Source: Candidatus Poribacteria bacterium
GTDB lineage: Bacteria > Poribacteria > WGA-4E > PCPOR2b
Assembly: GCA_965247655.1 (NCBI GenBank)
Contig: OZ252032.1
Coordinates: 3,717,888 to 3,781,887 of the forward strand
Direction: 5' to 3'
Length of the DNA: 64,000 nucleotides
A program made the position numbers and the translations under genes. Shown here one piece after another: positions 2,221-61,000 of this stretch; the stretch's first letter is position 1; each line of letters begins with the position of its first letter. A model generated the notes under the pieces. The model saw only the letters and a list, made by a program, of their open reading frames with translations, ran no database searches and was not told the origin of the DNA.

Positions 2221-2306
2221 ATTATACCTCTTTCGTTTTTGTAGTCGTGGGTATTTCGTCGGATGTCGCTCATTTTATCTTTGCTCATTTTAAGAAATCG
2301 TACAAC

Positions 2307-2385
2307 AGAAACCGAGTTTTCAAGTCCGAGAGGACCTCCGATGAATCGAGAGCAGGCCCGTGACCGGGGAAAAAACTCGGTTTCT
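2307..2385. repeat. Hairpin repeat module with a perfect 14-bp inverted repeat
   Basis: AGAAACCGAGTTTT (2307-2320) pairs with AAAACTCGGTTTCT (2372-2385). The interior (GTCCGAG...CCGATGAATCG...CCCGTGACCGGGGA) is shared with modules at 43751-43790 and 56441-56545. Confidence 0.7.
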
Positions 2386-2450
2386 CTATGCGTTTATAGC
2401 CCGACTGCACCAATGAACAAATGGTTGTCACGTTTCACGCTCTTTGCGGT

Positions 2451-4294: not shown

Positions 4295-5263
4295 TTACCG
4301 ATATACTGACTGGATCACCCCCCGAATATATCCGACTGCGTATGCCTGTCCTGCTCTGCCCGCGTCTGTCTGCGGAAATCCCGGCGTGTGATCCATCATA
4401 AAGGGACCGTTAAAGCCTGCATCTCGATAGATCGCCATCGCTCGGTGCATGTCTATATCGCCTTCATCAAGAAAAACCTCTTGGAAACTTGGCAGGCATC
4501 CGCGGACATTGCGGAAGTGGACGAAGACGATCTTGTTTTTAGTAGCCATCTCCCGAATCGCTTCATACACATTTACCCCCATCTCAGTGACGCAGCCCTG
4601 ACAGAACAGCATTCCGTTGGAGTCGAATGGAACGATGTCGAAAATCCGCCGGTACTGGTCAAGAGTTGATGCAATCTGCGCTACACCCCCTAGCGATTCG
4701 GGAATCGGCGGATCATCCGGGTGCAGTGCCATCCGGACTCCGACTTTGTCAGCCATCGGAATCACCCCTTCGAGGAAGTGCGTTATATGCTCCCACATCT
4801 CCTCCTCCGAGACCGGTGGGTCGTGTGGTTTGGGGCGATCCTGTGCAAACTCATCGTAATCAAAGGTGCTGTAGGAGGTGCCCCCTCTACCTTTGGCGGA
4901 TGTTGTGCGAAAATTCCCCATCGGTTTGAAATTGTATCCTAGCGCCGGGATACCAGCCGCGCTGATGCCCCGAAGCATTGTGCACCACGCCTCAATCTTC
5001 TCATCCCGATCTGGCAACCCTAGCCCAATTTCATCCCAGCCCGCCATAAAAATGCTGTATAGCTCTAGTCCGTGGGCCTCTGTCTTCGCCTTCGCCGCTT
5101 CAAAGAAATCTGTCCTGTCTACCCCATCTCGCAGGTCCAGTGAAGGGTCAACGCGGTGCATACCGCGAATATCAAGGCAAAGGCGATCGATTCCAATGGC
5201 GTTAAAAAAACTCAGATTCTCATCGTTAAACTGTTCCCAACTGAGTAGATCCTGAATGTACAT
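4295..5263 (-). CDS. uxuA: Mannonate dehydratase-like (UxuA family)
   Basis: 322 aa with HPDDPP, VHFRNV...F.E.FLDEGDIDM and MMDHTPG blocks typical of UxuA. GGAGGGG RBS. Confidence 0.7.
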   Translation of the reverse strand: MYIQDLLSWEQFNDENLSFFNAIGIDRLCLDIRGMHRVDPSLDLRDGVDRTDFFEAAKAKTEAHGLELYSIFMAGWDEIGLGLPDRDEKIEAWCTMLRGISAAGIPALGYNFKPMGNFRTTSAKGRGGTSYSTFDYDEFAQDRPKPHDPPVSEEEMWEHITHFLEGVIPMADKVGVRMALHPDDPPIPESLGGVAQIASTLDQYRRIFDIVPFDSNGMLFCQGCVTEMGVNVYEAIREMATKNKIVFVHFRNVRGCLPSFQEVFLDEGDIDMHRAMAIYRDAGFNGPFMMDHTPGFPQTDAGRAGQAYAVGYIRGVIQSVYR

Positions 5264-5306: not shown

Positions 5307-5410
5307 ATAACTCAAGTTGCTACCCATTGAAAATCCATCGGATTGTCGTTAGAGTTGAGGTTTCTACCTTTCACTCCAGTTGCTTTGAATCCCGATCTTA
5401 TCGGGGAGGA
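5307..5410. repeat. Repeat fragments: a solo TIR-like end plus a CCCGAT..ATCGGG/CAAAGCAACTGG module
   Basis: ATAACTCAAGTTGCTACCC at 5307-5325. CCAGTTGCTTTGAATCCCGATCTTATCGGGGAGG at 5377-5410 is the reverse complement of the module at 17225-17268. Confidence 0.75.
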
Positions 5411-5506
5411 GCACTATGTGTATAACCAAGTGTGTCTACCCCAAATATTCTAAAACCTCCGTACGCTCCCGCATCTCAGCAAATGCTGTTTTCTCAATAA
5501 TGGCAG

Positions 5507-6478
5507 TTATCGGTCAACCTGTTTGAGCCACCCCCATATCGTGAGTATCTTACCGGCGGGAGCAACTGCAAGAACAGGGTTAAACCATGCAGGATCAGTG
5601 TCATCATCGGGATTATTGGTGAGGTTTCGCTGATTACCCCCATCGCCGTCCATCACGTAGATGTCCAAGTGCCCACCCCTATTAGACACGAAGGCAATCC
5701 GTTTACCGTCAGGGGACCATGAGGGATCCTTATCAGAAAAGAGATCGTTAGAGAGGTTTCGCGGATTACCCCCATCGGCATCCATCACATAGATTTCCCG
5801 GTTCCCCCCGTTCTTCATGGAAGTAAAGGCAATGCGTTTACCATCAGGGGACCATGAGGGATCCTCGTCAAAACGAGCATTATTGGTGAGGTTTAGCAGA
5901 TTATCCCCATCGGCATCCATCACGTAGATTTCCAAGTTTCCAGTCCTACTAGAAGCAAAGGCAATGCGTTTACCGTCAGGGGACCATGAGGGATCTTTAT
6001 CATCAAAAAAGAGATCGTTAGAGAGGTTTCGCTGATTCTTGCCATCGGCGTCCATCACGTAGATTTGCCAATTCCCACCCGCAATACCCCTAGCCCCACT
6101 AGAAGTGAAGGCAATGCGTTTACCGTCAGGGGACCATGAGGGATCCCATTGAGCAACGGGAGCGTTAGTGAGTCTTCGCGGATTACCCCCATCGGCGTCC
6201 ATCACGTAGATTTGACGGTTCCCATCTCGTTCAGCAGTAAAAATAATGCGCTTGCTGTCGGGAGACCATGTGGGATGCCAATCATCAAAAAAGGGGCTTT
6301 TAGTGAGTCTTCGCGGATTACCCCCATCGGTGTCCATCACATAGATTTCCATGTTCCCATCCCTCTCAGACGTGAAGGCAATCCGTGCCTGTGCGTCAAC
6401 ATCTACCATCAGCGGCGTTAGACTCAAGACTACAACGCTAGCTAAAATGAAATGTGCGCGATTGTATCTCCGTTGCAT
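5507..6478 (-). CDS. PD40 (WD40-like, TolB-type) beta-propeller repeat protein with N-terminal signal/anchor
   Basis: 323 aa with about 7 repeats of EIYVMDADGGNxRxLTNxxxxDxDPSWSPDGKRIAF. Hydrophobic N-terminus. Confidence 0.85.
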   Translation of the reverse strand: MQRRYNRAHFILASVVVLSLTPLMVDVDAQARIAFTSERDGNMEIYVMDTDGGNPRRLTKSPFFDDWHPTWSPDSKRIIFTAERDGNRQIYVMDADGGNPRRLTNAPVAQWDPSWSPDGKRIAFTSSGARGIAGGNWQIYVMDADGKNQRNLSNDLFFDDKDPSWSPDGKRIAFASSRTGNLEIYVMDADGDNLLNLTNNARFDEDPSWSPDGKRIAFTSMKNGGNREIYVMDADGGNPRNLSNDLFSDKDPSWSPDGKRIAFVSNRGGHLDIYVMDGDGGNQRNLTNNPDDDTDPAWFNPVLAVAPAGKILTIWGWLKQVDR

Positions 6479-6664
6479 CTGCTATTCCTCCTCTGTTCTC
6501 AAATCGGTTTTTTATCCTTTGGGGTTGATAGACGTCAGATTGTGTTGGCAACACCTTTACAATTAAAGGGGCAACTCGGTTTGTTATCGCATGAAGTCTG
6601 CGCCCCTTCCTTGGCGTTTATGACCCAACCTCAGCAAACACTGTTCTCTCAATAATGGCAGTTA

Positions 6665-7621
6665 TCAGTCAACTTGTTTGAGTTGTCCCCATATTGTGAG
6701 TATCTTACCGGCGAGAGCAACTGCAAAAGCAGGGTCAAACCATGCAGGAGCAGTGTCGTCATGGGGATTATTAGTGAGGTTTTGCTGATTACCCCCATCG
6801 GCGTCCATCACGTAGATGTCACGGTTTCCATCCCTCTCAGACGAGAAGGCAATGTGTTCACCGTTAGGGGACCATGAGGGATGCCAACCATCCTGGCGAT
6901 TATTGGTGAGTCTTTGTTGATTACTCCCATCGGCGTCCATCACGTAGATGTCAAAGTTTTCAAAGTTCCCCTTCCTATCAGACGTGAAGGCAATCCGTTC
7001 ACCATCGGGTGACCATGAGGGATGCCAGTCATTCTGGCGATTATTGGTGAGTCTTTGTTGATTACCCCCATCGGCGTCCATCACGTAGATTTCCAAGTTC
7101 CCATCCCTAGTAGTAACAAAGGCAATGCGTCTATCGTCAGGGGACCATGAGGGATCCCATTCATCAACAAGGGGACTGTTAGTGAGTCTTTGTTGATTAC
7201 CCCCATCGGCGTCCATCACGTAGATATCAAAGTTTCCAACCCTACTAGAAGCAAAGGCAATACGTCTACCGTCCGGAGACCATGAGGGATCTTCGTCATC
7301 ATGGGCATTATTGGTGAGGTTTCGCTGATTACCCCCATCACCGTCCATCACGTAGATGTCAAAGTCGCCACCCCTAATGGAACTGAAGATAATGCGTTTA
7401 CTGTCGGGAGACCATGCAGGAGCAGTGTCATCAAAAGGATTGTTAGTGAGGTTTCGCTGATTACCCCCATCGGCGTCCATCACGTAGATTTCCTGATTCC
7501 CATCCCTCTCAGACACGAAGGCAATCTGTGCCTGTGCGTCAACGTCTACCATTAGCGGCGTTAGACTCGACACTATAACGCTAGCTAAAATGAAATGTGC
7601 GCGATTGTATCTCCGTTGCAT
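6665..7621 (-). CDS. PD40 beta-propeller repeat protein, tandem paralog of 5507..6478
   Basis: Same architecture. I place the start at ATG 7621 (MQRRYNRAHF, GGAGGA RBS 7 nt upstream). The ORF-track TTG at 7645 would translate the RBS itself. Confidence 0.85.
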   Translation of the reverse strand: MQRRYNRAHFILASVIVSSLTPLMVDVDAQAQIAFVSERDGNQEIYVMDADGGNQRNLTNNPFDDTAPAWSPDSKRIIFSSIRGGDFDIYVMDGDGGNQRNLTNNAHDDEDPSWSPDGRRIAFASSRVGNFDIYVMDADGGNQQRLTNSPLVDEWDPSWSPDDRRIAFVTTRDGNLEIYVMDADGGNQQRLTNNRQNDWHPSWSPDGERIAFTSDRKGNFENFDIYVMDADGSNQQRLTNNRQDGWHPSWSPNGEHIAFSSERDGNRDIYVMDADGGNQQNLTNNPHDDTAPAWFDPAFAVALAGKILTIWGQLKQVD

Positions 7622-7789
7622 CTGTTTTTCCTCCTCTGTTTTCAAATCGATCTCTTATCCTTTGGGCCTGATAGAGGTCAACTTGTGTAAGGAAGCCCTT
7701 TCCAATTAAGGTGGTAACTCAAGTTATTATACGCCAATCACCATCTTTCTGCAACGGAAATCTCCGGGTGCTATAAGGCTATTTCTCGA

Positions 7790-8987: not shown

Positions 8988-9220
8988 TCTCGTGTCAAAA
9001 GAAAGTACAAAACGCAAAGAGCGTGAAACGTGAAAACTACGAGCCCAATTCAATACCGGTATAGTCAAGACTATTACGTAACCTAAGTTGCTAGGGTCAT
9101 TTAATTCTTCGAGCGGGGCAAGATGCCCCGCCTACAGGGTCGGGTAGAACGTGGTGCTACTACGAACAGCGAGGCATAAGCCAAAACGGAAAAACTAAAT
9201 GCCCCTAGCAACTTGCGTTA
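8988..9220. mobile_element. Composite MITE-like insertion flanked by a 12-bp direct repeat
   Basis: GGTATATATCAG occurs at 8976-8987 and 9221-9232. Inside is a TIR pair: CGTAACCTAAGTTGCTAGGG (9077-9096) and CCCCTAGCAACTTGCGTTAGG (9202-9222). There is also a GCGGGGCAAGATGCCCCGC hairpin (9113-9131). Confidence 0.6.
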
Positions 9221-9790: not shown

Positions 9791-10084
9791 TAGACTATTA
9801 GGACTTACGCAGTTGAACGTTCAACCCCTTGTAGTTCAGTGACTCATTACCGGACAATACGACTCACGACGTCCGATGAATCGGGCAACTACAGTGGTTT
9901 GTAGTAAGTCTCGAACTCTCGGAACGGAGGCGATTTATCGACCGTACCCCCTCTAACTCCCCTACCCCCCTTTATCCCCCCGCAAGCAGGGGGAGGGAGG
10001 GGAGAAAGCAATGAATTGCGCTACTACAAATTGCTTTGAATCCCGATAAAATCGGGGCTGAAGTGCGTAACTCCTAAGACTATA
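9791..10084. repeat. TIR-bounded repeat element containing several hairpin modules
   Basis: TAGACTATTAGGACTTACGCAG (9791-9812) matches the reverse complement of GTGCGTAACTCCTAAGACTATA (10063-10084) at 17/22. Interior: a C-rich/G-rich hairpin at 9957-10004 and a CAAAGCAA/CCCGAT module at 10029-10060. Confidence 0.6.
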
Positions 10085-10139
10085 TTGTTGATCTAGCAAA
10101 TCGGGTTTCATATTGTAGAGTTATTTAGTTTTCGTTTGT

Positions 10140-10195
10140 TTCCTGTCTGAGTCGGGATTCGGAGATCCCTCCTACAGGAGAATTAAATGCCTCTA
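10140..10195 (-). repeat. Repeat module (reverse complement of the left end of the 21548-21804 element)
   Basis: GAGTCGGGATTCGGAGATCCCTCCTACAGGAGAATTAAATGCC is the reverse complement of GGTCATTTAATTCTCCTGTAGGAGGGATCTCCGAATCCCGAC at 21551-21592. Confidence 0.7.
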
Positions 10196-11830: not shown

Positions 11831-12480
11831 TGCGACGTACCAATTTCGGATTCTGGACAGATCAGCTCCCATATCGCTGGTCACACCGAATTACCAATTT
11901 TGTCTTTAATCTTTTCGGTAAATTGGAATCTCATGGCTATGAGAATATTCCACGACACGGTGGCACCTTAATTTTATGCAACCATGTGAGCTATTTCGAC
12001 CCCTTCATCGTTGGCGCCACGGCGAATCGAGAGTTGCACTTTATGGCAAGGCATGATTCTTTTGATATGCCGGTGATAGGCTCTCTGATCGCTGCACACA
12101 ATGCGTACCCAGTAAAACGCGGCACGGCAGATCGCGCTGCGCTCCGACGCACCATCTCCCTGCTGAAATCAGGAAATGTAGTCCTCATCTTTCCCGAAGG
12201 CACACGCAGTGTCGATGGTACGCTGGGCAAACCCCATGGGGGTGTCAGTTTCATCGCTCATAACGCAGGGGTACCTGCTATTCCCGCTTATCTCAAAGGA
12301 ACGATACTCCCCCGTAATGCGAAATGGATTCATCCTGCTCAACTGACCGTAACCTTTGGCACCCCCATCGATTTCACAGAGGCGCGACAAATTGAGGACA
12401 AACGCGAGCTATACCGGCGGATGGGTGAGCAGATTATGCAGGAAATTGCCAACATCCGGGACGGACAAATGCGTAAGTGA
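11830..12480 (+). CDS. plsC: 1-acyl-sn-glycerol-3-phosphate acyltransferase
   Basis: NHVSYFD (HxxxxD) and FPEGTRS motifs. TAATG overlap with the cmk stop. Confidence 0.85.
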   Translation: MRRTNFGFWTDQLPYRWSHRITNFVFNLFGKLESHGYENIPRHGGTLILCNHVSYFDPFIVGATANRELHFMARHDSFDMPVIGSLIAAHNAYPVKRGTADRAALRRTISLLKSGNVVLIFPEGTRSVDGTLGKPHGGVSFIAHNAGVPAIPAYLKGTILPRNAKWIHPAQLTVTFGTPIDFTEARQIEDKRELYRRMGEQIMQEIANIRDGQMRK

Positions 12481-12551
12481 AATGATTCGCCATTCGCTAC
12501 CGACCGCCAAGAAACTCCTCATTAATCAATCTCGTTTCACACCTTAGAATA

Positions 12552-12902
12552 ACTCAAGTCGAGTTTCCATACTCGACATCCACTAAAAATAACGCAAGTT
12601 GCTAGTTGTCTGATAACACTACACACATGTCGCCCCGCTGGGGCTTTGGGGTGTGGTGATTGGCTCTTGCTATACACATTGCGCTCCTCTGGAGCGCAGG
12701 GATTACCCCTATCACCGTTCTATAGACATATCGCTCCTCTGGAGCGAAAGGTATTATAGCACAAGTTGCGATTCGGAGATCGCTTGACAGGTTAGGAAAC
12801 CTGTCCCCACTAGAAACCGTGTATACTTGGTGTAGGAGGGAATTCCAATTCCCAACTCTTGCATCGGCTTCTGACGCTTGGTTTATCAACTAGCAACTTA
12901 GG
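12552..12902. mobile_element. Composite MITE-like element (family A plus extra modules) between convergent plsC and dapB
   Basis: Flanked by TTAGAATA (12544-12551 and 12903-12910). TIRs: AATAACGCAAGTTGCTAG (12588-12605) and CTAGCAACTTAGGTTAGAAT (12890-12909). Hairpins: GCCCCGCTGGGGC, GCGCTCCTCTGGAGCGC and TCGCTCCTCTGGAGCGA. Homologous to 32152-32343. Confidence 0.7.
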
Positions 12903-13700
12903 TTAGAATAGGACTTCTGCGATGTCATGCAAGCCCTTCGGTGCACCCATCACCCACCGTGCTGCACGAATCGCTCCACGCGCAAGCGGTTCACGGTTTT
13001 GACCGCGATGTGTTATCTCAAGACGATCACCCGTACCGACAAATAAAACTGTGTGATCGCCGGCAAGGTCTCCTCCTCGAATGGCGTGTATACCGATCTC
13101 CTTCTTGGTGCGCTTTCCGACGATGCCGTGCCTACCGTACACGCCGACTTCTGAAAGATTTCTGTCCAGTGTTTGAGCGAGGACCTCAGCCATCCGTAGG
13201 GCGGTCCCACTCGGTGAATCGACTTTTTGATTATGATGTGCTTCAATGACCTCCACGTCGTAGTCGTCCCCGAGCACATTTGCAACGAGTTGAATCGCTT
13301 GCAACATAACATTGATGCCGACGCTCATGTTGGATGCCATCACGCACGGGATTTGAGGTGCGAGTGTGTGCACCTGTGCTAATTCCTCTTCATCATATCC
13401 TGTCGTTGCGATGACCATCCGCTTTCCGGCGTCTACAACGTTCTGGAGATGCTCAATGGTTGCACTTGGCGATGTGAACTCAATCACAACGTCTCCGTCA
13501 TCCAGAATTGCAGGCAGATCACTGGTAACAGGCACACCGATTGTCCCAATTCCGGCTACTTCTCCTACATCCTGCCCAAGTTGCGGATGCTCAGAGAATT
13601 CGATAGCACCGACAATCTGCATATCTTCCTGTTCTGAAACGCCTTGCGTAATCATCTTACCCATGCGCCCACAGGCACCATTAACAATAACACGAATCAT
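12903..13700 (-). CDS. dapB: 4-hydroxy-tetrahydrodipicolinate reductase
   Basis: MIRVIVNGACGRMGK N-terminus and the EAHHNQKVDSPSGTAL signature. Confidence 0.9.
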   Translation of the reverse strand: MIRVIVNGACGRMGKMITQGVSEQEDMQIVGAIEFSEHPQLGQDVGEVAGIGTIGVPVTSDLPAILDDGDVVIEFTSPSATIEHLQNVVDAGKRMVIATTGYDEEELAQVHTLAPQIPCVMASNMSVGINVMLQAIQLVANVLGDDYDVEVIEAHHNQKVDSPSGTALRMAEVLAQTLDRNLSEVGVYGRHGIVGKRTKKEIGIHAIRGGDLAGDHTVLFVGTGDRLEITHRGQNREPLARGAIRAARWVMGAPKGLHDIAEVLF

Positions 13701-15586: not shown

Positions 15587-15669
15587 GATATTTCTCCTTT
15601 TACAACTCTGTGAAGGCATTGAACCTTCGCAAGGCTAGATTGTTATTCAGAATAGATTATCATAATCTT

Positions 15670-15712
15670 CCGATCTGTATCCCCCTTGCCTTAGCAGAGG
15701 GATACAGATCGG
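15670..15712. other. Perfect 14-bp-stem hairpin (function unknown)
   Basis: CCGATCTGTATCCC (15670-15683) pairs with GGGATACAGATCGG (15699-15712) around a 15-nt loop. Followed on the plus strand by CAGCCTTTATTTTTG. Confidence 0.6.
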
Positions 15713-16126
15713 CAGCCTTTATTTTTGTTGAAAAACTAATTGAAATATAGTATATTTCCACTATCCACTGGTTGAGAGATTGCAGCTTCGGGCAACCCCG
15801 CCCGTTGCTCTCAACCGCCTACTGCAAAGGGTTGAGTGGATGTGGAAAACACCAGACGCCACAAAAAAACAAACATTTAACCGGCACCCCTATCACACTT
15901 GATGTGATAGAGCCGCATAATGTAAATGTGCGAAGGACATGCCTTCCACGTATCGGTAGCCCCTCGGTTTCAAGGGGTTTCCGTAGTGCGCCAAATGGCC
16001 CGCGCCGCCCCATTTGCATGAGGTGTGGCCCTTTGAGTTGACAGGGGAAGCCTCCCACGAGGAGATGCAAGATGGCCCCATACTAGCAATGTAGGTAAAC
16101 CCTAAGAAACCCGGACGGGTAAGAAT

Positions 16127-16146
16127 CCCCGCCCTTTAGGGTGGGG
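16127..16146 (-). terminator. Candidate intrinsic terminator after the PLP-enzyme gene
   Basis: GC-rich stem CCCCGCCC/GGGTGGGG with a 4-nt loop, 25 nt past the stop at 16171. On the minus strand it has one A.C mismatch and is followed by AUUCUU. Confidence 0.3.
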
Positions 16147-16170
16147 AGTGGTTAAACATTATACAACAAT

Positions 16171-17148: not shown

Positions 17149-17183
17149 AACTAATGATTCCCTTTCAGATGTTTGTATATCGC

Positions 17184-17342
17184 AAGTTGCTAGACAGCCT
17201 GTAGGTCGAGGATTGCTATATACACCCCGCCCCGATAAGATCGGGATTCAAAGCAACTGGGGCTTTGGAGGTCGGGCAAGATGCCCAACCTACGGGTATA
17301 GGGGACTGACTTTTATCGCGCCGCACATAACTAACAACTTGG
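17184..17342 (+). mobile_element. MITE-like element (family B) flanked by a perfect 13-bp direct repeat
   Basis: GTTTGTATATCGC occurs at 17171-17183 and 17343-17355. Ends are AAGTTGCTAG... and ...CTAACAACTTGG. The interior is homologous to 43564-43845. Confidence 0.7.
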
Positions 17343-17372
17343 GTTTGTATATCGCTGCACTCAATTGCCTCA

Positions 17373-35146: not shown

Positions 35147-35173
35147 TCTTTTAACAATAAAAGGAGACTCCGG

Positions 35174-43849: not shown

Positions 43850-45652
43850 TTATTCATCAATTGACAAAATTGCCATAAATGCTTCCTGTGGCACCTCGAC
43901 ATTCCCAATCTGTTTCATCCGTTTTTTGCCCTCCTTTTGCTTTTCGAGCAGCTTCCGCTTGCGGGTGACGTCACCGCCATAAAGTTTTGCTGTCACGTTC
44001 TTCCGTAAAGCACGGATGGTTTCACGCGCAATCACTTTATGCCCGATTGCCGCTTGGATGGGTACGGTAAACATCTGCTGTGGAATAACTTCTCTCAATT
44101 TTTCTACCAACGCGTTTCCTCGACCGTAAGCCATGTCACGGTGAACAATCGTTGAGAGGGCATCAACCGGTTTTTCATTGAGTAAAATGTCCAGTTTCAC
44201 GAGATCTGCGGGTTTGTACTCACCAATTTCGTATTCAAGCGAACCATAACCGCGCGTCAATGATTTGAGTTTGTCGTAGAAATCAAGGAGAATCTCGCCC
44301 AAGGGCAGATCGTAACTGATTTGTACACGGGTTACATCGAGCTGATCCATGCGAATGAAGATGCCCCGTCGCTTTTGACACAAATCCATCACATTTCCGA
44401 TGTAGTCTCGCGGTACAATAATATCAGCGGTGATGTGAGGTTCCGCAATGTAATCAATCTGATCAACGGGAGGCACCTTCGCAGGATTATCGACTTCAAC
44501 GCACTCACCATCTCGTTGGATGACACGGTACTTAACGCTCGGTGAGGTGCGGACAAGGGAGAGGTCAAATTCGCGTTCAAGCCGTTCTTGGATAATCTCC
44601 ATGTGCAGCAATCCTAGGAAACCACACCGAAAGCCGAACCCAAGCGCGACAGAAACTTCAGGCTCAAATCTGAAAGAATCATCGTTGAGTTTAAGCCTTT
44701 CGAGCGCCTCTCTCAACGACCCAACCGCGCTGGTGTCCGCTGGATATAGCCCACAAAACACAAGCGGCTTCATTTCGCGGTAGCCGGGCAGCGGTGCTGA
44801 TGTTGGTTTTGTGTGGTCGGTAATCGTTTCACCAATCTTCGCGTCTGCTATATCTCGAACCCCGGCAACCACATAACCGACTGAACCGGTTGATAGCCCC
44901 TCAACTGGTTTCATGTGTGGCAGGAAAACGCCGACCTCCTCGACTTCGTAAGCGCTGCTCGCTGCCATCAAACGGATTTTGTCGCCTATCTTCACATTTC
45001 CATCAAAAACGCGCACATACATGACGACGCCCCGATAGCTGTTGTACACCGAATCAATGACTAGTGCCTTTAGAGGACCACCGATATCTCCTTTTGGCGA
45101 AGGGATTCGATCCACAATTGCTTCCAATATCTCCTGTGTGCCGATATTTTCTTTTGCACTCACTAAAACCGCTTCGTCTGCGGGGATGCCGACAACTTCT
45201 TCTATCTGTCGTTTGACCTCATCAGGACGCGCTGTCGGGAGATCGATTTTGTTGATAACGGGAATAATCTCAAGGCCGTGGTCAATTGCGAGATAAGCAT
45301 TTGCTAGCGTCTGTGCCTCTACACCTTGGGCGGCATCGACGATTAAAATGGCTCCCTCACACGCTGCGAGGCTCCGCGACACTTCGTAAGTGAAATCAAC
45401 GTGCCCAGGGGTGTCAATCAGGTTCAGCTCGTAGAGATCCCCATCCGTAGCGCGATAATCGAGTTTCACAACGGTCGCTTTAATGGTGATGCCACGCTCG
45501 CGCTCAAGATCCATCAGGTCCAAAACCTGCTCGCGCATCTCACGGGGCGTCAACGTGCCGGTGTATTCCAAAAGGCGATCACTGAGTGTGCTTTTGCCGT
45601 GGTCTATATGTCCTAAAACGCAGTAGTTTCGTATTTTTTGTTGGTTATTCAT
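43850..45652 (-). CDS. lepA: Translation elongation factor 4
   Basis: [21 protein letters not shown]1 motif, [13 protein letters not shown]. 600 aa. Confidence 0.95.
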
Positions 45653-45788
45653 TGAGTATAGGGAATTGCAATCCTTATGTTAAAAAATATGGTCTTTGTT
45701 TTTGACGACTGAATGCGTGATTGCGTTGAATCCATCGTTAATTCTTAAATCTATGTTTCGTGCTTAACGGACCACGTTTCACGTAGTT

Positions 45789-46499
45789 CTATGAGATTTC
45801 TTGCAGTATTGTCCTCGCTGCTTCACGTGGGTTATCTGCTGCTGTGATGGGGCGTCCAACGACGATGTAATCTGCCCCGGCATTGATTGCTTCACCCGGT
45901 GTCATGACACGTTGTTGATCGTTTGAAGCCGCCCACGCCGGGCGGACACCGGGTGTAACAATCACAAAATTGTTGCCGCAAACCTTCCGAATCAACTCAA
46001 TCTCCAATGGTGAGGCGACGACGCCCTCCAACCCCGCTTTCTGGGATAGTTCTGCAAGATAAGCGACTTGATCTTTCAACCTGCGTTGCGTTCCAAAATC
46101 ACGCTGGAAATTCGTCTCATCAACGCTTGTGAGGATGGTCACCCCCAAAAGTGTTGGCTTCGGGATACTGAATTCGGACGCTTGTTTTTCTGCGGATTCC
46201 CCTGCGGCACGCATCATCTCCAGTCCACCTGAAGCGTGTACGTTGATGATATTGGCACCAATTTTTGTCGCAGATGCAACTGCGCCGGCGACAGTGTTAG
46301 GAATGTCGTGAAATTTGAGATCGAGAAAGATGTTTTTCTTTGCTTCGTGTAGCAGCTTAACGGAAGCGGGACCGACAGCAGTGAAGAGTTGTTTGCCAAT
46401 CTTGAACCATTTGACATCATCGGAAAGTGTGGTAACCAGCCGGTTTGCGGTTGCTAAGTTTTCTACGTCTAAAGCAACGATGAGTTGATTTTGGGACAT
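45789..46499 (-). CDS. pyrF: Orotidine-5'-phosphate decarboxylase
   Basis: LIVALDV and FLDLKFHDIPNTV motifs. ATG at 46499 (AAGGA RBS) is preferred to 46523. Confidence 0.9.
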   Translation of the reverse strand: MSQNQLIVALDVENLATANRLVTTLSDDVKWFKIGKQLFTAVGPASVKLLHEAKKNIFLDLKFHDIPNTVAGAVASATKIGANIINVHASGGLEMMRAAGESAEKQASEFSIPKPTLLGVTILTSVDETNFQRDFGTQRRLKDQVAYLAELSQKAGLEGVVASPLEIELIRKVCGNNFVIVTPGVRPAWAASNDQQRVMTPGEAINAGADYIVVGRPITAADNPREAARTILQEIS

Positions 46500-47368: not shown

Positions 47369-47489
47369 AGTATCTCCTTTACACTGCGCGTAAGATGTCC
47401 CCGAACATCAACTGTGGTTAAATATAGAAAGCGGTCAATTGTGTATAATGACTAGGGCGTGTTGACATTTATGCAAAACTGTCCGTAAT

Positions 47490-47642
47490 CGTAGGTGCTC
47501 GCATCCCGATTTATCGGGGGGCGGGGTCCCCTCGCCCATTGACCAACACGGGTTGGAACCCCCAAACCATACGGGTTGAGCCGATTGTAGGTCGAGATTC
47601 ATATCTCGACACCGAATCGTCGATTTTGGAAAATCGACCTAC
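47490..47642. repeat. Cluster of repeat hairpin modules
   Basis: CCCGATTTATCGGGGGGCGGGG (47505-47526). TGTAGGTCGA (47586-47595) pairs with TCGACCTACA (47633-47642) and encloses GTCGAGATTCATATCTCGAC. 47585-47613 is the reverse complement of 56325-56354. Confidence 0.75.
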
Positions 47643-47877
47643 AGCAGTTCAAAATCGTCTATGATGTGTGATCAAAGGGTTGGGAAACCCAATCCCTACA
47701 AAGGACCATCTGTTTGTGCACACATCTCGACTATCTGATTGCGATGAAATGTCAACAGAACCTAATTATGTGAATGAGCGAGGTCAGGAACCTTGTTCGC
47801 GGAGTTACGGCACACGGCGTGTGCCTACTACTTTTAATGTCTGTTTATTTTTAGAATTCACTATAAGTGCTACGCAA

Positions 47878-56229: not shown

Positions 56230-56324
56230 TGCTTTGATTCTCTCCTTCAATTTATAAAAAGTACAATTTCATTTCTCAAGACAATAAACTTGATTGATCA
56301 TATTCTAGATTCTGTTGACATTTG

Positions 56325-56556
56325 GGTGTCGAGATATGAATCTCGACCTACAGGCTAGTAAAAAATAATGCGTAAGAAGAAACGGAACGCAGATCTGCGT
56401 TCCCTACAAATTGTCCTCGTTGATGCAAGTTTGGGGGCGGGCAAGTCCGATCCCGTTCCTAGGACTCCGATGAATCGGAGGAGGAACCTTCCGTTTCACG
56501 ATCCCGATTCTCGGGACGATCGAATCGGGACGTGACCGGGGATGCCCGACCTACAC
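56325..56556. repeat. Cluster of repeat modules between hisS and aspS
   Basis: 56325-56354 is the reverse complement of 47585-47613. A perfect 20-bp palindrome, GGAACGCAGATCTGCGTTCC, lies at 56384-56403. A long GGGCGGGCAAGTCCGA...CGTGACCGGGGATGCCCGACCTAC hairpin lies at 56434-56554. Confidence 0.75.
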
Positions 56557-56567: not shown

Positions 56568-57833
56568 CTAGCTATCCACCTTTTCACGCATCATTTCCGC
56601 TAACCGTTGGAACGCAACCGACTGCTGATCGCCGCTCCCCATATCCCGCACCGTTGCAGCTCCATTGCTGATCTCATCTTCGCCGATCATGACGACATAT
56701 CGTGCGTTCAGCTTGTTTGCAGTCCTCATCTGTGCTCGCAAGCCACGCCCTTTGAACTCAAGATCAGTTTTGACGCCATTCTCACGAAGATCTTGCGCTA
56801 ACCGCAGGGCTATAGGCATCGCTGCGTCCCCTAACACCGTGAGGTAGACATCCACCGGCGCAGAGGTTGGCACCTTAACTTCCTGGGCGTCCAAGGCAAT
56901 GATAATCCGATCCATACCGAGTGCGAATCCGATGCCGGGTGTTGGGTTGCCCCCGATTTCTTCCGCCAGATAGTCATACCGACCGCCACCGCCGATTGCG
57001 TTTTGTGCACCTAGTCCGCCCGCTGTGAATTCAAACGCGGTGCGAGAGTAGTAATCTAACCCTCTAACAACGTATGGATCTTCGTGATAATCAATTTCGA
57101 GTTGATCCAGATAGCGTTTCACCACCTCGAAGTTCTCGCGGCAGGCGTCACACAGGTAGTTAGATAGAAGCGGAGCGTTAGTAACAACGGCACGACAACC
57201 GCTCTCTTTGCAATCCAAGATTCGCATCGGATTTCGTTCGTGACGCGCATAACATTTTCCACACAGTTCGTCAAGATGCGCCTTCGCATACGCTGTCAGA
57301 TCTTCAACATACTTTGGACGACAGGCCGGATCGCCGATGCTGTTGAGGTGCAAAGTAAGGTCTTTGATGCCGAGTGTCGAGAAGAATTGGTTCCCTGCTG
57401 CGATAATCTCTGCGTCGATTGCGGGCGAGTCCGCCCCAAACGCTTCAATGCCAACCTGCCAAAATTCTCGATACCGCCCCGCCTGTGGACGGTCATATCG
57501 GAACATTTGACCGATATAGTAAAATTTTAAGACGCTAGCACCATCCATCAAACGATTTTGGAGCATGGCACGAACCACTGAGACTGTGCCCTCTGGACGC
57601 AATGAGACGCTTCGGTTGCCCCTGTCATTAAAGGTGTACATCTCTTTTTCAACGATGTCAGTGGTATCGCCGACCCCACGCACGAAAAGGTCTGTGCTTT
57701 CAAAAATTGGCGTACGGATCTCTTGATACCCGTAAGTGCCAAAAACAGACCGTGCGACCCCCTCAACCCATTGCCATGTTTGAACTTCTGAAGGGAGGAT
57801 GTCTCTCGTCCCTTTTGGTGATTGAATCTGCAT
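56568..57833 (-). CDS. hisS: Histidine--tRNA ligase
   Basis: MQIQSPKGTRDILP, FRYDRPQAGRYREF, GGGRYD. Confidence 0.95.
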   Translation of the reverse strand: MQIQSPKGTRDILPSEVQTWQWVEGVARSVFGTYGYQEIRTPIFESTDLFVRGVGDTTDIVEKEMYTFNDRGNRSVSLRPEGTVSVVRAMLQNRLMDGASVLKFYYIGQMFRYDRPQAGRYREFWQVGIEAFGADSPAIDAEIIAAGNQFFSTLGIKDLTLHLNSIGDPACRPKYVEDLTAYAKAHLDELCGKCYARHERNPMRILDCKESGCRAVVTNAPLLSNYLCDACRENFEVVKRYLDQLEIDYHEDPYVVRGLDYYSRTAFEFTAGGLGAQNAIGGGGRYDYLAEEIGGNPTPGIGFALGMDRIIIALDAQEVKVPTSAPVDVYLTVLGDAAMPIALRLAQDLRENGVKTDLEFKGRGLRAQMRTANKLNARYVVMIGEDEISNGAATVRDMGSGDQQSVAFQRLAEMMREKVDS

Positions 57834-58011
57834 TTTCTATCGATTACCCCTTTGTCAAGTGTATGATTATGCACGGTTACTTCTTTAACCGCTATAGCCC
57901 GCTTTTCTTCAAGCTATCCTGATGTTTTTTGTCCAGTTATTTGTCGCGATTTGGAAGGTATACCCCCTATCGTCTGTTTGGGGAGTAGGAGTCTCGATTC
58001 GGAGATCGCTC

Positions 58012-61000
58012 CTACCTTTGCATTGTCATTGCCGCTTGGATTTGACGGTGCTGCTCTTGCAAATATGGATCTCTCGGCGCGAGACGCATTGCTGCATCGA
58101 CCGATTTCAACGCCTCATCGTATCTGCCTTGTGCAAGGTATACTTTTGCCAAATCGCTGTGCGGCATCAGTTCATTCGGCGCGAGTCGCATCGCAGCTTC
58201 AAAAGCATCAACCGCTTGTCTAAACTCGTTCTTATCCGTATAGATAACCCCCAGCAGGTTATGCACACGCCAAGAATTTGCATCCGCCGCCAACGCCTTC
58301 TGCGCGTATTGGAGGGCTTCGGGGAGCATCTTCTTATGAAAATGGTAAATCGATGCCATTGCACCGAAAATGATAGCGGGGAGATTCGGGTCTAATTTCT
58401 CAAGCCTATGGTACGTGCGTAACGCTTCATCGTACCGTTCTTGACGTTCATAAATCGGTCCGAGCAATGAATAAAGCTCTGGGCGATTCGGATCATATTT
58501 GAGTGCCTCTTCAAACGCGTTCGCCGCCTTCGCTAATTCACCTTGAAGTTCATAGGTGATGCCCAGTTCAACCTGCTTTTGGACATCGCGTGGATTACTT
58601 TGTAGTGCCTGCTTAAGAACCTTTTCGGTCTGTTTGAGTTCCTGTTGATAATCTTTATTTGCCAACTCTACCGCAGCCCCAAGATTGTACCGAATCGTAT
58701 TATCGTACGGATTAATGGCTAACGCCTGATTCAATACACCAACAGCCTTCTCATATTCCCCCTTGGCATATTCAATCTGTCCTTCGATCAGTTTCTGCGT
58801 GGCATCAAAGTAGAGATCGATTCGCTTTCGCACCTCGATCTTGTCGCTCATCGTGCGACCGTAATTTGCCAAATAGGGGGTGGAGCACTCACGATATTTC
58901 GCTAGTCCCGCAATGTTTTTATGAGTTGTGTTCACCAGTGCGCGGGGCTGGAAAAATTCCAACTGTGGGTGATTGTCTGTATGGATTGGACCATCGCCGG
59001 CATACGCTCGGACCGCCTTCTCGCCCATCATAAACGAATCGAGGAGCGACATACCATCGAGGTCATCGGCTGCGAGTGCCTCGTGAACCCGCGGTATCTG
59101 CGCCCTCTCCATAAGACGCTTATAATTTATCTTGAGCCGTTCTGGCGTACCAATCAGGATGGCAAAGTCTGGCGTGTATTTATACCATATTGTTGCGTTT
59201 GGAAACACCTCAACAAAGGTTCTCACAATCATCTTGAGATGTGTTTCTGGCAGCCGATCGAGCGGTATCCACTGGCATATTATACCATCTTCTGTGAGAA
59301 TACGCTTGCACCACCTGTAGAAATCTGCGGCGTAAAGATTAGAACCCCTTGAACTCGCAAGCGGGTGCGTCGCACCTATAGAAATCACATCGTATCGTTT
59401 TGGCGTCATTAACAGATAATTTCGCTCATCATTGACCATGTGATTGAACAAGGAACTGTCGAGGACGTTATGGTTTATATCGGTGAAGTATTTTCGTGCC
59501 GTTTCGATGAGTCCCCTTGGATTTTCAACAGTGTTCACGCGTACGTCGTGCTGTGTCATGATATGGGATGTAATTCCCATGCCAAATCCGAGGATAAGCC
59601 CACGTTCAGGGTTCGGATGCAGCAGTAGCGGTAGATGGGCGATGATGCGATGCGATGCAGATTCTCGACGGGAAGCGTCGACGATTTCGTCATTGTCAAC
59701 ATAGACCCGATGGATACCTTGGTCATCCATAAACGTAGCGATATTCGCATCAACAGTTTCGGTATGCTCGGCTAGTATATCGTTTATGCGTTGCGTCCAA
59801 AAGGTCCCATTCTTCAAAAAGGGGGGCGAATTCCCCCATAGCAACACCATCAACCCAACTCCGCCGGTTAGGATGGCACCACCAATCGCGGTGCCGCTGA
59901 AAAACTGTGATTTCTCTGTATTCCGAATAATCAAAACACATCCCACCACCGTATTCAACCCGGCGGTCAAGAGAAGGCTCGGACGTATCCCAATCAGCGG
60001 AATTAGAATAAATCCCGCACATAGTGATCCAAGGAGTGCACCGATTGTGCTGAAAGGATGGACCGCCGATTGCGATTTGGCAGCAGTACATATCTGTCTG
60101 CCCAACGGAAAACTAGCCCCGATCAGGATAGTGGGGATAATCATCAGGATAAAACCAGCAACAAATTCCCAGAAGCGTCCAACCCCGAAGGCAGCTTGCA
60201 ATCCCCTGCTAATCCCATATAGGTTTCCGAAAGCCGGTATCAGGGCAGCAAGGGATAGTCCGATCCCAATCTGAACCAATCCGAAAAGGTTTACGAACGG
60301 TTTAATCCGACGTGTGATCGCTGCAAATAGAAAACTGCCAACGGCAATGCAGATCAATAAGGCGGTCAATGTGACCGAGAAAGCGTAACCCGAGTTGCCG
60401 AGAAAGGAGGTCAGAATCCGCGTCCAGAGGACGGCATAAGCCATTGCACAGAAGCCGGCAACGGCAAAGGTCCATAACAGCGGTCGCCACATTTCGCCTG
60501 CTGGAGATATTCCCGATCCGTCGTTTACGTCCTGCTGCAAGTCTACAGAAGTTTCAGACCAAGAGCGATCTAAACCGAAAGCAACCCCCGCCAGAACCAA
60601 GTTAATCACCACACCCAAATAAACCGAATTCTGAACCCCTAAAAGCTGGATAAGGAAGAACCCAGCGGCGATACAACCGAGGCTCGCACCAAGCATATTG
60701 ATTGTGAAGAGACGATCCGCTCTGAATCCTGCACATCTTTCCTTGGCGGATCTACTGAGAAGGAAAACTGTCCCTCCCATCAGCGTTGACGGAATCAACA
60801 GAACGACAAATGACAGAACAAACCGAATCCATGAAAGGGGATAGAACCCCGCACCCAGTCCGCGATAGATGAGAACACAGATGGCGTTGAGAATATCCAA
60901 CAAAGTCGGGAAGATGAGTGCAAAGATACCGAGCCCCGCTCCGAGAAAAGCATACAGGCGCAATAGTCGCTTTTCTCCATTTGCTAAACGCCTGAAGTAG

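Follow-up and report, generated by a model that had tools for sequence, protein, structure and literature searches.

What fills the large intergenic gaps of the chromosome of a sponge-symbiont Candidatus Poribacteria bacterium, one element or many? We have examined a stretch of 64,000 nt (the window), in which a sequence-only reading had listed 14 loci as recombinations of the modules of one MITE-like family bounded by terminal inverted repeats (TIRs). The evidence makes it very probable that this intergenic DNA has instead been colonised by several independent non-autonomous mobile families inserting into one another, so that the gaps would be filled with nested, small, non-coding mobile DNA. 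As MITEs and REP/RAYT systems are themselves known kinds of element, the Poribacteria elements would represent new families in an uncultivated phylum.

Recurrence and extent of the repeats

All 14 loci contained DNA that recurs, far beyond chance, within the window as well as across no fewer than 15 Candidatus Poribacteria genomes, and an 11-mer census mapped the recurrent words to these loci. Compared with shuffled sequences, the AAC-NN-AAGTTGC-type TIR core AACNNAAGTTGC had 10 exact sites in the window (0.09 expected), GGATTCAAAGCAA with at most one mismatch had 7 (0.15 expected; five of them true copies of P1, a tiny insert described below) and ACATNNCGCYCCKCTGGRGC had 6 (0.00 expected). 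BLAST comparison with a sample of roughly 0.9 Mb of other Poribacteria DNA showed at least two matches for ∼2.4 kb of non-genic window DNA, at essentially the same loci. More than 107 stretches contained the exact P1 21-mer ATCGGGATTCAAAGCAACTGG, and each of the matches listed came from a Candidatus Poribacteria genome. The proposed hairpins folded as claimed in a folding computation. The description of the repeats as modular, hairpin-rich and mainly intergenic is borne out.

The extent of the repeats required some correction. Of the 16 gaps of 200 bp or longer, 12 carried them, so that most of the large gaps were occupied, but not by a single family. A 13th gap, at 15620-16170, held an IS605-like element. 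At 8988-9220, only 9079-9220 was an element while 8988-9078 was unrepeated, and the repeat placed at 47490-47642 extended over 47451-47866. True TIRs bounded many repeats, but those of the AAC-NN-AAGTTGC type were carried by only ∼9 loci or fragments, and the repeat inside 9791-10195 had a different TIR, at 9799-10076. The ORF at 12602-12889, without Pfam match, and the extension of lepB, whose product is 266 aa and not 289 in sister-strain calls, looked spurious as proposed. Also in agreement with the sequence-only reading, tblastn with IS982, IS701, Y1, RAYT and TnpB proteins detected no transposase homologue encoded in the window. An Rfam search with the repeats gave no matches. Finally, comparison of orthologous intergenic regions revealed precise presence or absence of P1, of a second tiny insert (P2), of one MITE-A and of one MITE-B.

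Two MITE families with full-length insertion sequence partners

MITE-A is delimited by the TIR (T)AAC-NN-AAGTTGC-TAG and flanked by target duplications of ∼5 bp; in the Poribacteria sample, perfect repeats of 5-6 bp flanked 7 of 18 candidate TIR pairs. Its full-length partner is an IS982-family element of a relative (L108:3026-3950), which has MITE-A ends, the duplication AATAT and a transposase matching NF033520 with 170 bits (cut-off 130). MITE-A would be a deletion derivative of such an insertion sequence, moving by a DDE cut-or-copy-and-paste reaction that would create the ∼5 bp duplication. The copy at 17179-17345 (17174-17350 with its 5-bp duplication TGTAT), which carries a REP-H hairpin with P1 (17230-17256) and a REP-K hairpin (17270-17296), is absent from the corresponding locus of L018, an empty site with a single TGTGT. 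Further copies are found at 9079-9220 (142 bp; TIRs TAACCTAAGTTGCTAGGG and CCCTAGCAACTTGCGTTA; REP-K at 9113-9137), 12590-12905 (316 bp; REP-H units at 12619-12648, 12670-12698 and 12720-12748) and 43566-43841 (276 bp). The last one contains a REP-X (43585-43613), a REP-H with P1 (43655-43680), an empty REP-H (43712-43740) and a REP-K (43741-43793) with a Q insert at 43755-43778. The 172-bp copy at 37575-37746, with flanks GAGAT and AAGAT, was present in six sister strains, and in strain L110 a MITE-B-like element replaces its right end. The copy at 32148-32345 (32143-32350 with its duplication AAGAT) bears a cassette of three REP-H units with 84% identity to 12628-12750. A second copy (32351-32568) abuts it and is followed by a third left-end fragment (32574-32593), the two together spanning 32351-32593. 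Another left-end fragment, at 5308-5375 (plus strand), resembles in its subterminal part the end of the IS982-family element of L108.

MITE-B has the TIR TAGGACTTACGCAGTTGAAC, copies with flanking duplications of 5-7 bp and, as full-length partner, an IS701-family element of a related genome (L060:4510-5549), with MITE-B ends and an IS701 transposase (NF049921, 393 bits), of which it would be the equivalent derivative. A 190-bp MITE-B with the duplication CCTTAT was present at window position 45672 in four of six sister strains. In the window, the copy at 9799-10076 (9792-10083 with flanks) has TIRs TAGGACTTACGCA and TGCGTAACTCCTA, a P1 at 10030-10056 (minus strand) and a GTAG REP at ∼9871-9892. 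The direct repeat AGACTAT at its flanks, which had not been treated as a target-site duplication, is most likely one, because duplications of 5-6 bp flank other MITE-B copies, including the polymorphic one at 45672 with CCTTAT.

Both families resemble other IS982- and IS701-derived MITEs in that their TIRs are identical to those of a full-length insertion sequence of a related genome, they have no coding capacity, their target duplications are short and A+T-rich, and their presence varies between relatives. They differ in their interior, which consists of REP hairpins and tiny inserts beyond the remnants of insertion sequence ends, and in the head-to-tail arrangement of copies, with a single spacer of exactly 5 bp between one copy and the next (32346-32350 and 32569-32573). 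Two more loci are composite. The repeat at 21546-21804, with ends TAGGGTCATTTA and TAAATGACCCTA, encloses a REP-Y, a CCCCCTGATAAGGGGG module and a TAGATTTTAGAATTAATTAG module, and that at 47451-47866, a 95% match to L028, includes a REPIN-like inverted pair of GTAG REPs (47586-47644) and a GTAG REP at ∼47805-47835.

REP-type hairpins and the genes they border

REP-H, formed by GCCCCGCTGGGGC and GCGCTCCTCTGGAGCGC, has a 12-nt head, CTATAnACAT(G/A)T, and no GTAG or CGTC tag, whereas REP-K (GGGCAAGATGCCC...CCTAC), REP-X and REP-Y bear the GTAG tag. The window also contains a REP-H unit with a P1 insert at 5376-5425 (minus strand; P1 at 5379-5405, minus strand), REP-Y hairpins at 10150-10177 (minus strand; ...TCGGGATTCGGAGATCCC..CCTAC) and 57985-58015 (GTAGGAGTCTCGATTCGGAGATCGCTCCTAC), and a single REP-X-like hairpin, GTCGAGTTTCCATACTCGAC, at 12552-12580, just outside a MITE-A. 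GTAG-type REPs are located at 39499-39529 (GTAGGGAACAACGATCGTTGTT...), a site overlooked in the original list, and at 56382-56407 (GGAACGCAGATCTGCGTTCCCTAC), and a GTTGACATTT motif precedes a single REP-X (GTCGAGATATGAATCTCGACCTAC) at 56310-56354.

In related genomes, HUH/Y1 tyrosine-transposase genes are bordered by REP-H or REP-K in inverted orientation. The Y1 gene of L023 (PF01797, E = 6e-27; NF033573, 74.6 bits), which scores as an IS200-type Y1 and not as a RAYT, lies between two inverted REP-H units on one side and six on the other. A homologue 80% identical to it, in L116, shows the same arrangement, and more distant homologues have analogous hairpins with an ACAAACA head. The RAYT genes P0089 (L197) and P0098 (L201) are flanked by inverted GTAG(G/C)CGGGGCATCTTGCCCCGC (REP-K) arrays. 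The likeness to REP/BIME mosaics drawn earlier was apt, two of the stem-loop modules being those that flank HUH/Y1 genes. Each family (REP-H, REP-K, REP-X, REP-Y and others) would depend on one single-copy HUH/Y1 tyrosine transposase of the RAYT type, which would work on single-stranded DNA and have its gene in another part of the genome. As a point against this view, the window lacks genes for all of the enzymes proposed, and it is through related genomes that they can be putatively tied to the window copies.

These hairpins share with the REP/REPIN and RAYT systems of E. coli, Pseudomonas and Stenotrophomonas (PMC3116915, PMC3733652, PMC5581495) the short, G+C-rich imperfect palindromes in many intergenic copies, single, in inverted pairs or clustered, the GTAG tag of REP-K, REP-X and REP-Y, the Y1/HUH genes placed between inverted copies of their own REP and, across related genomes, several REP families with a gene each. 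In contrast, REP-H has its 12-nt head and an IS200-type flanking gene by score, and it lacks GTAG and CGTC, the tags borne by most REPs described to date, which is a point against the preferred reading. Very often, moreover, the Poribacteria REPs are carried within DDE-type MITEs and in turn accommodate smaller inserts, and the literature searched gave no earlier such system from this phylum. E. coli BIMEs are likewise intergenic mosaic clusters of palindromic units and other short motifs, but their motifs are not known to have DDE-type TIRs as boundaries, and the sequences are unrelated. We know of no E. coli BIME motifs that move as separate units of 24-31 nt.

Tiny loop inserts and the origin of the mosaic

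P1 (27 nt), P2 (31 nt) and Q (24 nt) lie in the loops of other hairpins, 3′ of C(A/C)AG, and are built alike: a leader of 11-16 nt, a short CCCG...CGGG hairpin and one terminal base. Their hosts are unrelated (REP-H, REP-K, the S palindrome, a gene terminator, GTAG REPs and MITE-B). P1 occupies the REP-H loop, where ∼75% of its copies reside, and at least four other hairpin types; in 71 of 110 copies its flanks formed 5 or more base pairs with each other, compared with 2.9% of random controls. The 5′ arm of P1 was perfect in 101 of 122 copies and its loop showed 18 different sequences, as expected for a hairpin recognised by a protein. Q always sat between GGGCA(A/G)G and ATGCCC. Between window positions 12480-12935 and L018, the sole sizeable indel was a clean 27-nt P1, in the first REP-H loop of the MITE-A at 12590-12905, a loop that is empty in the window and filled in L018. 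The terminator-like hairpin CAAACGTAAAACG...CGTTTTACGTTT at 32040-32113 (plus strand) carries at ∼32067-32098 a P2 that is absent from the 98%-identical strain L001. The REP-K at 56436-56556 (minus strand) holds in its loop a Q with further inserts inside, and a 30-nt piece of it (56451-56480) is absent from sister strain L110. The S palindrome AGAAACCGAGTTTTCAAG...AAAAAACTCGGTTTCT (2307-2385) contains, after CAAG, a 45-nt composite Q-type insert (2325-2369); the empty 34-nt form, for which 56 half-site matches from the Poribacteria sample gave the consensus, folds at -13.3 kcal/mol. Lastly, the ABC ATPase ORF at 41555-42697 (minus strand) includes a P1 copy (41599-41625, plus strand) in its 3′ tail, so that 41597-41629 is not intergenic, as had been supposed.

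These inserts are hard to accommodate in one TIR-bounded MITE family whose modules, every stem-loop included, are shuffled by recombination. Most REP-H units of the window do lie within AAC-NN-AAGTTGC-bounded elements, two of which share the three-hairpin cassette. However, REP-H and REP-K arrays also occur beside Y1 genes outside any TIR, P1, P2 and Q come or go alone, P1 has at least five unrelated hosts including a coding tail, and 9799-10076 has other ends and an IS701-family partner. Clean single-module indels and two distinct full-length partners contradict that scheme, which we consider highly improbable: there are at least two unrelated MITE families, several REP families and separately moving inserts of 24-31 nt, and the modules are independent, nested elements rather than recombined parts of one. 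Equally improbable is that the repeats are selected, immobile host elements such as terminators, mRNA stabilisers, small-RNA genes or protein sites. Most repeats lie between co-directional or convergent genes, many form G+C-rich hairpins, some followed by T runs, some contain a TTGACA motif, and such roles are known for REPs of other bacteria (PMC3733652). Nevertheless, presence/absence polymorphism with target duplications between 96-98% identical strains, the full-length partners, the lack of Rfam matches and the copies in a divergent promoter region and a coding tail speak against it, and host function alone leaves the insertion polymorphisms unexplained. Individual copies might still have been co-opted, and we infer that transcription termination, mRNA stabilisation or promoter delivery could be among their functions. 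As for the REP-H arrays, their ∼28-nt repeats with a period of 50-51 nt recall degenerate CRISPR-like arrays, an idea that can practically be discarded given that units within one array differ, the 'spacers' are conserved between loci, arrays of 2-6 units are dispersed over very many loci and no cas genes occur among the annotated window ORFs.

The preferred reading, independent nested families, leaves the question of how the tiny inserts spread. P1, P2 and Q resemble just one end of an IS200/IS605-type element, with one hairpin compared with the two subterminal hairpins of such elements. Insertion would take place without target duplication and directly 3′ of C(A/C)AG, where the rising arm of the host hairpin reaches its top, and we infer that a Y1 transposase would mobilise the inserts in trans. 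Spread without an enzyme, whether through homologous recombination or gene conversion among the abundant host hairpins or through template switching at hairpins during replication, is a less likely yet serious possibility. REP-H harbours some three quarters of the P1 copies, many of which could therefore have been multiplied by gene conversion from one REP-H to another, with no transposase involved, and the variation of REP-H arrays in whole units of ∼50 nt suggests recombination or slippage. In addition, no Y1 gene flanked by the P1/P2 CCCGAT hairpin was found in ∼1.1 Mb of Poribacteria DNA, nor was this hairpin present beside the six RAYT genes inspected. On the other hand, the common architecture of the inserts and their stem-top C(A/C)AG target, in hosts without common flanking homology, together with the conserved stem and variable loop of P1, argue for an enzyme. 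The orientation of P1 showed no association with local GC skew, although this is a weak test.

Small hairpin repeats regularly placed in the middle of palindromes that also exist empty in the genome are known from Thermomicrobium roseum (GTAG-23), Anabaena variabilis (GTAG-15) and Halothiobacillus (CGTC-1) (PMC3733652, section 7). The Poribacteria inserts differ from these in being untagged single hairpins with a leader, hosted by REPs of other families and nested over several levels (56436-56556). Small dispersed repeats of the cyanobacterial Nostocaceae, SDR1-8, were reportedly described by Elhai et al. in 2008 (Genome Res 18:1484). These, summarised in PMC5861425, are likewise mobile, dispersed units of only ∼21-27 nt nested in repeats and MITE-like sequences, with insertion deduced from filled and empty sites of related genomes and no known enzyme. 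They belong to another phylum and their sequences are, as far as can be told, unrelated; the leader-hairpin build and the C(A/C)AG target atop host hairpins set P1, P2 and Q apart. With IS200/IS605 elements and their non-autonomous derivatives, the PATEs, the inserts share the lack of TIRs and target duplications, the position 3′ of a short specific sequence and a recognition hairpin near the end, but they have one hairpin in a total of 24-31 nt, and their connection to a Y1 enzyme is a putative one. To our knowledge, this size is far below that of any described IS200/IS605 derivative. TnpB-only copies and a classic IS200/IS605 left end (TCAT, 19 nt, hairpin) were also observed, polymorphic in sister strains.

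Repeated DNA in the window and its relatives

The window has a G+C content of 49.8% and carries housekeeping and envelope genes (lepA, lepB, aspS, hisS, dapB), together with a molybdenum hydroxylase cluster, a TonB-dependent receptor, ECF sigma factors and PD40 propeller proteins. No tRNA or tmRNA gene was found in it, and exact-protein look-up returned no record for the products of lepA, hisS and the ORF at 4295-5263. The cyanobacterial HIP1 octamer GCGATCGC occurs only once in the window, and thus the source organism is not a cyanobacterium. Among these genes, two tandem PD40 beta-propeller paralogues with internal repeats of 132-135 nt occupy 5507-7645, and such paralogues are abundant in other Poribacteria loci (L009, L014, L065, L072, L093, L105). 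The paralogous proteins encoded at 22358-23755 and 23976-25451 have an N-terminal ECF sigma domain, and adjoining them lies a 760-aa fusion of ECF sigma and ankyrin repeats (25667-27949).

Three sets of related sequences were aligned to the window: OZ244950.1 (locus L018; 12150-19886, 85-90% identity), an ENA metagenome contig (L001; 25562-37619, 98-99.6% identity) and six ENA metagenome contigs from sister strains (L110-L115; about 36600-56950, 96-98% identity). We compared module counts with dinucleotide-preserving shuffles of the window. AACNNAAGTTGC was found 10 times (0.09 expected) and, allowing up to one mismatch, GGATTCAAAGCAA and ACATNNCGCYCCKCTGGRGC were found 7 and 6 times (0.15 and 0.00 expected, respectively). 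When roughly 0.9 Mb of Poribacteria DNA from non-corresponding regions was compared with the window by BLAST, about 2.4 kb of the non-genic window DNA was matched two or more times. Folding agreed with the hairpins that had been proposed, and 12 of the 16 gaps that measure 200 bp or more bear these repeats. With module counts far over those of shuffles, recurrence in other Poribacteria and hairpins that fold, the repeats are real.

The sequence-only reading had assigned these repeats, at 14 or more loci, to one family of modular MITE-like elements. This single-family view fails: the repeats are a nested mosaic in which two or more MITE families occur together with several families of REPs and three or more of tiny inserts. 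REP-H units, one of the REP-type hairpin families, lie mostly inside the MITE-A copies of the window, which is why they had been taken for modules of a single element. Recurrent words in an 11-mer census concentrate in the loci originally listed, and all 14 carry recurring DNA; within them 8988-9078 is unique sequence, the repeat assigned to 47490-47642 extends over 47451-47866, the supposedly intergenic 41597-41629 lies within an ORF, and a repeat at 39499-39529 had been overlooked. The statement that the window lacks a transposase was borne out by tblastn with IS982, IS701, Y1, RAYT and TnpB proteins, which detected no homologue.

MITE families and REP-type hairpins

MITE-A and MITE-B are non-coding families bounded by terminal inverted repeats (TIRs). 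MITE-A ends in (T)AAC-NN-AAGTTGC-TAG and its interiors form several subfamilies. The TIR AAC-NN-AAGTTGC-TAG is present on both sides at 9079-9220, 12590-12905, 32148-32345 and 37575-37746, and is degenerate at 17179-17345 and 43566-43841. Of 18 candidate MITE-A terminal-repeat pairs in the Poribacteria sample, 7 have flanks that repeat perfectly over 5-6 bp, one of them being AAGAT around window 32148-32345; the flanks of several window MITE copies match at just four of five positions. The copy at 17179-17345 has TGTAT on both sides; the corresponding L018 locus is without the element and has a single target copy, GTT-TGTGT-ATCAC. A related genome contains a full-length element with MITE-A ends and the duplication AATAT (L108:3026-3950), whose transposase belongs to the IS982 family (NF033520, 170 bits with a cut-off of 130; PF13612, E = 3e-16), and window 5308-5375 resembles its subterminal sequence. 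An IS630-like TA duplication was considered for MITE-A and rejected, as flank comparison gave a duplication of about 5 bp and the IS982 partner was found. MITE-A copies also abut head to tail, a right end being followed by one exact 5-bp spacer (32346-32350; 32569-32573) and the next left end.

In the MITE-B copy at 9799-10076, both ends have the terminal repeat TAGGA(C/G)TTACGCA, and the copy ends in TAGGA(C/G)TTACGCAGTTGAAC. Duplications of at least 5 bp were found in 6 of 9 paired MITE-B copies, and a related genome holds an element with MITE-B ends, the duplication AACAT and an IS701-family transposase (L060:4510-5549; NF049921, 393 bits). Four of the six sister strains carry a 190-bp MITE-B with the duplication CCTTAT at window position 45672, where the window has no copy. 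Because other MITE-B copies carry duplications, the AGACTAT repeats flanking 9799-10076, which had initially been withheld as a target duplication, are most likely a genuine one. Both families thus show the features of MITEs, which are derivatives of DDE transposons: TIRs, target duplication, a full-length partner coding for a transposase, and presence or absence in relatives, where the check suggested earlier uncovered precise differences at corresponding sites (17179-17345 compared with L018; MITE-B at 45672).

Several smaller features were noted as well. Where the window has 32147-35160, comprising two MITE-A copies and a TonB-dependent receptor gene (32627-35146), the 98%-identical L001 has about 110 nt of unrelated sequence (L001:6506-6654), a gene-content difference bordered by MITEs. 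A motif resembling a -35 box, GTTGACATTT, recurs within repeats at 47460, 47747 and 56313 and is also part of one subfamily of MITE-A (TAGGGCGTGTTGACATTT); outward-facing promoters may be present in some elements. The 27-nt piece TGGTAGATTTTAGAATTAATTAGATAC, present at 47768/47769 only in sister strains L113 and L114, belongs to a family that is frequent just outside MITE-A ends. Another motif, CACGTTTCACG, has three window copies (2429, 9022 and 45773) and forms long tandem arrays, (CGCATCACGTTTCACG)n, in other Poribacteria loci.

REP-H consists of CTATAnACAT(G/A)T followed by CGCCCC-GCT-GGGGC or GCGCTCC-TCT-GGAGCGC. REP-K has the form GTAGG(C/T)(C/G)GGGCATCTTGCCC..., which in the window reads GGGCAAGATGCCC...CCTAC. 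We counted 173 empty REP-H units and 20 REP-K units in the 0.92 Mb sample, densities biased by the choice of this sample for its P1 content, and 6 and 2 in the window. A GTAG tag is carried by REP-K, REP-X, REP-Y and the GTAGGGAAC REPs, and the GTAG/CGTC end tag is missing in REP-H and in the tiny inserts P1, P2 and Q. In the genome that also contains L018, a gene for a 157-aa Y1 transposase (locus L023; PF01797, E = 6e-27; NF033573, 74.6 bits) lies between inverted sets of REP-H units, two to one side of it and six to the other. Its 80%-identical homologue in L116 has the same REP-H layout, and distant Y1 homologues from other environments are flanked by hairpins with an analogous ACAAACA head. 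Protein-database search and inspection of gene contexts led to RAYTs for REP-K and for other GTAG REPs. The RAYT gene of L197 (P0089) lies between inverted REP-K arrays of six copies upstream and four downstream, and that of L201 (P0098) also has REP-K flanks. GTAG hairpins of other kinds border the RAYT genes of L077 (NF047646, 99.7 bits), L198, L199 and L202. NCBI names several members of this RAYT protein family as Candidatus Poribacteria transposases. Among the Poribacteria genes inspected, no Y1/HUH gene had inverted REP-X, REP-Y or P-hairpin flanks. Inverted doublets are present as well, with a REPIN-like pair of GTAGGTCGA hairpins that fold together at 47586-47644 and an inverted GTAGTT pair in MITE-B. 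An imperfect palindrome of 20-40 nt in many intergenic copies, a REP-flanked Y1 gene in related genomes and inverted doublets, as in REP/REPIN-RAYT systems, are thus all found here. Several REP families that have a matching Y1 gene provide natural hairpin-enzyme pairs for studies of HUH transposase recognition.

Tiny inserts in hairpin loops

P1 (27 nt), P2 (31 nt) and Q (24 nt) are inserts in the loops of other hairpins. Read on the leader-first strand, each consists of a leader (TTGCTTTGAAT in P1, TTGAGTGTAGCGAAAT in P2, TCCGAGAGGAT in Q), one hairpin (CCCGAT-loop-ATCGGG, CCCAAT-CTA-TCGGG and CCCG-TGAC-CGGG, respectively) and a terminal G, or in P1 alternatively A. The exact 21-mer ATCGGGATTCAAAGCAACTGG of P1 was found in more than 107 stretches in a scan of one genome per prokaryotic species; among the matches listed, every record is Candidatus Poribacteria, with at least 15 assemblies represented, and the 21-mer was not present in the viral contigs searched. 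A match to GAATTCAAAGCAA at 9712 was discarded as a P1 copy, being a chance match within the 5′ part of a CYTH-domain ORF.

Alignment of the 21-mer copies defined both states of the REP-H site: when empty, ...ACATGTCGCCCCG runs directly into CTGGGGC...; when filled, CCCCGAT-loop-ATCGGGATTCAAAGCAA stands between ...GCCCCG and CTGGGGC.... P1 also sits between GCGCTCCT and CTGGAGCGC, between GTAGGCATACTCCG and TATGCCTAC, in the GTAGTTCGGCGAT hairpin of MITE-B and in the tail of an ABC ATPase gene. Of 110 P1 copies, 71 have flanks that pair over 5 bp or more, compared with 2.9% of random controls. The 5′ arm, which lay outside the search pattern, was a perfect CCCGAT in 101 of 122 copies, and 18 different loop sequences were observed. 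As a side observation, the ABC ATPase ORF (41555-42697, minus strand) reads through a REP and P1 over about its last 24 codons, past TOBE_2, and all seven strains compared share the repeat-derived tail.

Filled and empty sites were then compared between relatives. Over window 12480-12935, where the surrounding MITE-A is 95% identical to that of L018, the sole sizeable indel is a P1 of 27 nt, cleanly bounded by unduplicated flanks, in the loop of the first REP-H unit of L018. P2 (CCCCGATAGATTGGGATTTCGCTACACTCAA) sits in a hairpin loop downstream of the gene at 31167-32021 and is missing from the 98%-identical strain L001 as a clean indel of about 31 nt. Q (TCCGAGAGGATCCCGTGACCGGGG) has nine copies, every one between GGGCA(A/G)G and ATGCCC, and a composite form follows CAAG within the S palindrome, a further host, at 2307-2385. 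At 56436-56556 nesting is several levels deep, and one 30-nt piece is missing from strain L110. P1 and Q were the main short-insert clusters in an automatic search for filled/empty site pairs, filtered for the tandem repeats that swamped its unfiltered output.

The three inserts mostly lie directly 3′ of C(A/C)AG, where the rising arm of the host hairpin reaches its top. Read on the leader strand, the flank is CCAG in REP-H, CAAG for P2, and CAAG or, in one copy, CAGG for Q. The 15 P1 copies outside the search pattern were preceded by CCAG (four), CAAG (three), CAAA (three), CACA (two), CATA, TATA and CAGG. Neither terminal inverted repeats nor target duplication were found for P1, P2 or Q. 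A circular or end-joined form of P1 or Q would read ...ATCGGGG joined to TTGCTTTG....

Possible mobility and relation to known systems

The layout of the tiny inserts, with a target tetranucleotide, a spacer and a hairpin, is that of an IS200/IS605 end. However, IS200/IS605 elements have subterminal hairpins at both ends, whereas P1, P2 and Q have one hairpin per element; we therefore liken them to one such end and do not file them as members of that group. This layout, together with TnpB-only IS200/IS605 copies that are polymorphic in sister strains at window 51837/51838, suggests that a Y1/HUH enzyme might mobilise P1, P2 and Q in trans; the enzymes for all element families would be supplied by other parts of the genome. 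Y1 genes are common in these Poribacteria genomes. Neither tblastn over about 1.1 Mb nor inspection of RAYT contexts detected a Y1 gene with CCCGAT-hairpin flanks, and a search for genes flanked by inverted P1 copies found none. In a weak test, the strand of P1 showed no association with local 8-kb GC skew (odds ratio 0.64, p = 0.33); that of REP-H was (p = 3e-7), but array copies are non-independent and gene orientation confounds this value.

We put forward, as a tentative and rather doubtful proposal, that P1, P2 and Q represent a class of minimal single-strand DNA transposon, 24-31 nt long and not recognised before, moved by a domesticated Y1/HUH enzyme. Each would be a leader plus one hairpin, half an IS200/IS605 end, which the enzyme would aim at C(A/C)AG atop extruded hairpins, and the inserts would thereby be parasites of REPs and terminators in the genome that carries them. 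Gene conversion, by which P1 would spread from one REP-H copy to another, is a serious rival to part of this proposal. Were the transposon proposal true, these inserts and the cyanobacterial small dispersed repeats (SDRs) would be the smallest known mobile DNA, and SDR-type elements would gain a mechanism. A CRISPR array was rejected as a reading of the repeats: array units differ, spacers are conserved between loci, and no cas gene is present among the annotated ORFs.

Elhai et al. in 2008 reportedly described the small dispersed repeats of Nostocaceae as mobile sequences 21-27 nt long that lie within other repeats. P1, P2 and Q are alike in size (24-31 nt), nesting and filled/empty polymorphism, a likeness by description. 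In the part of PMC5861425 that treats them, these Nostocaceae repeats are likewise 21-27 nt long and nested in other repeats. IS982- and IS701-type MITEs and REP/REPIN-RAYT systems are established kinds (PMC3116915, PMC3733652), and REPs within other palindromes are known from Thermomicrobium, Anabaena and Halothiobacillus (PMC3733652). Our literature search found no paper describing such non-coding repeats in Poribacteria. Rfam gave nothing at gathering thresholds and only two chance-level matches at E <= 0.5, so that this check, proposed with the sequence-only reading, brought no family match that would remove novelty. Since the kinds are established and neither a description in Poribacteria nor an Rfam match was found, the repeats are new families from an uncultivated phylum, all of kinds already known; existing knowledge covers the tiny loop-targeting inserts least. 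Their filled and empty sites are matched and their target is defined, which makes them a tractable system for studying how 24-31-nt sequences can move, an open question since the cyanobacterial repeats were described.

Poribacteria are uncultivated, abundant sponge symbionts. Nested mobile DNA makes up about 5% of the window and varies between strains that share 96-98% identity, and these elements therefore drive strain-level variation; they are also a likely cause of fragmented short-read assemblies and spurious ORF calls.

Further differences between relatives were noted. The segment 15661-16157 (about 497 bp) is missing from the corresponding locus L018, and its end hairpin CCCCGCCCTTTAGGGTGGGG resembles the right end of a TnpB-carrying IS605-type element of the sister strains. 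It is probably a non-autonomous IS200/IS605 derivative, possibly including a TnpB guide-RNA region; Rfam gave no match for it. The IS605-type insert at 51837/51838 (1.25-1.44 kb) encodes TnpB only (OrfB_IS605, Cas12f-like domain), has a left end of the classic layout (TCAT, 19 nt, hairpin), and is present in five of the six sister strains (L111-L115) and absent from the window and L110. L110 in turn has a 222-bp tandem duplication of the lepA start and upstream gap (window 45625-45847) and, just upstream of aspS, a 419-bp insert with an IS605-like hairpin at its end (56215/56216).
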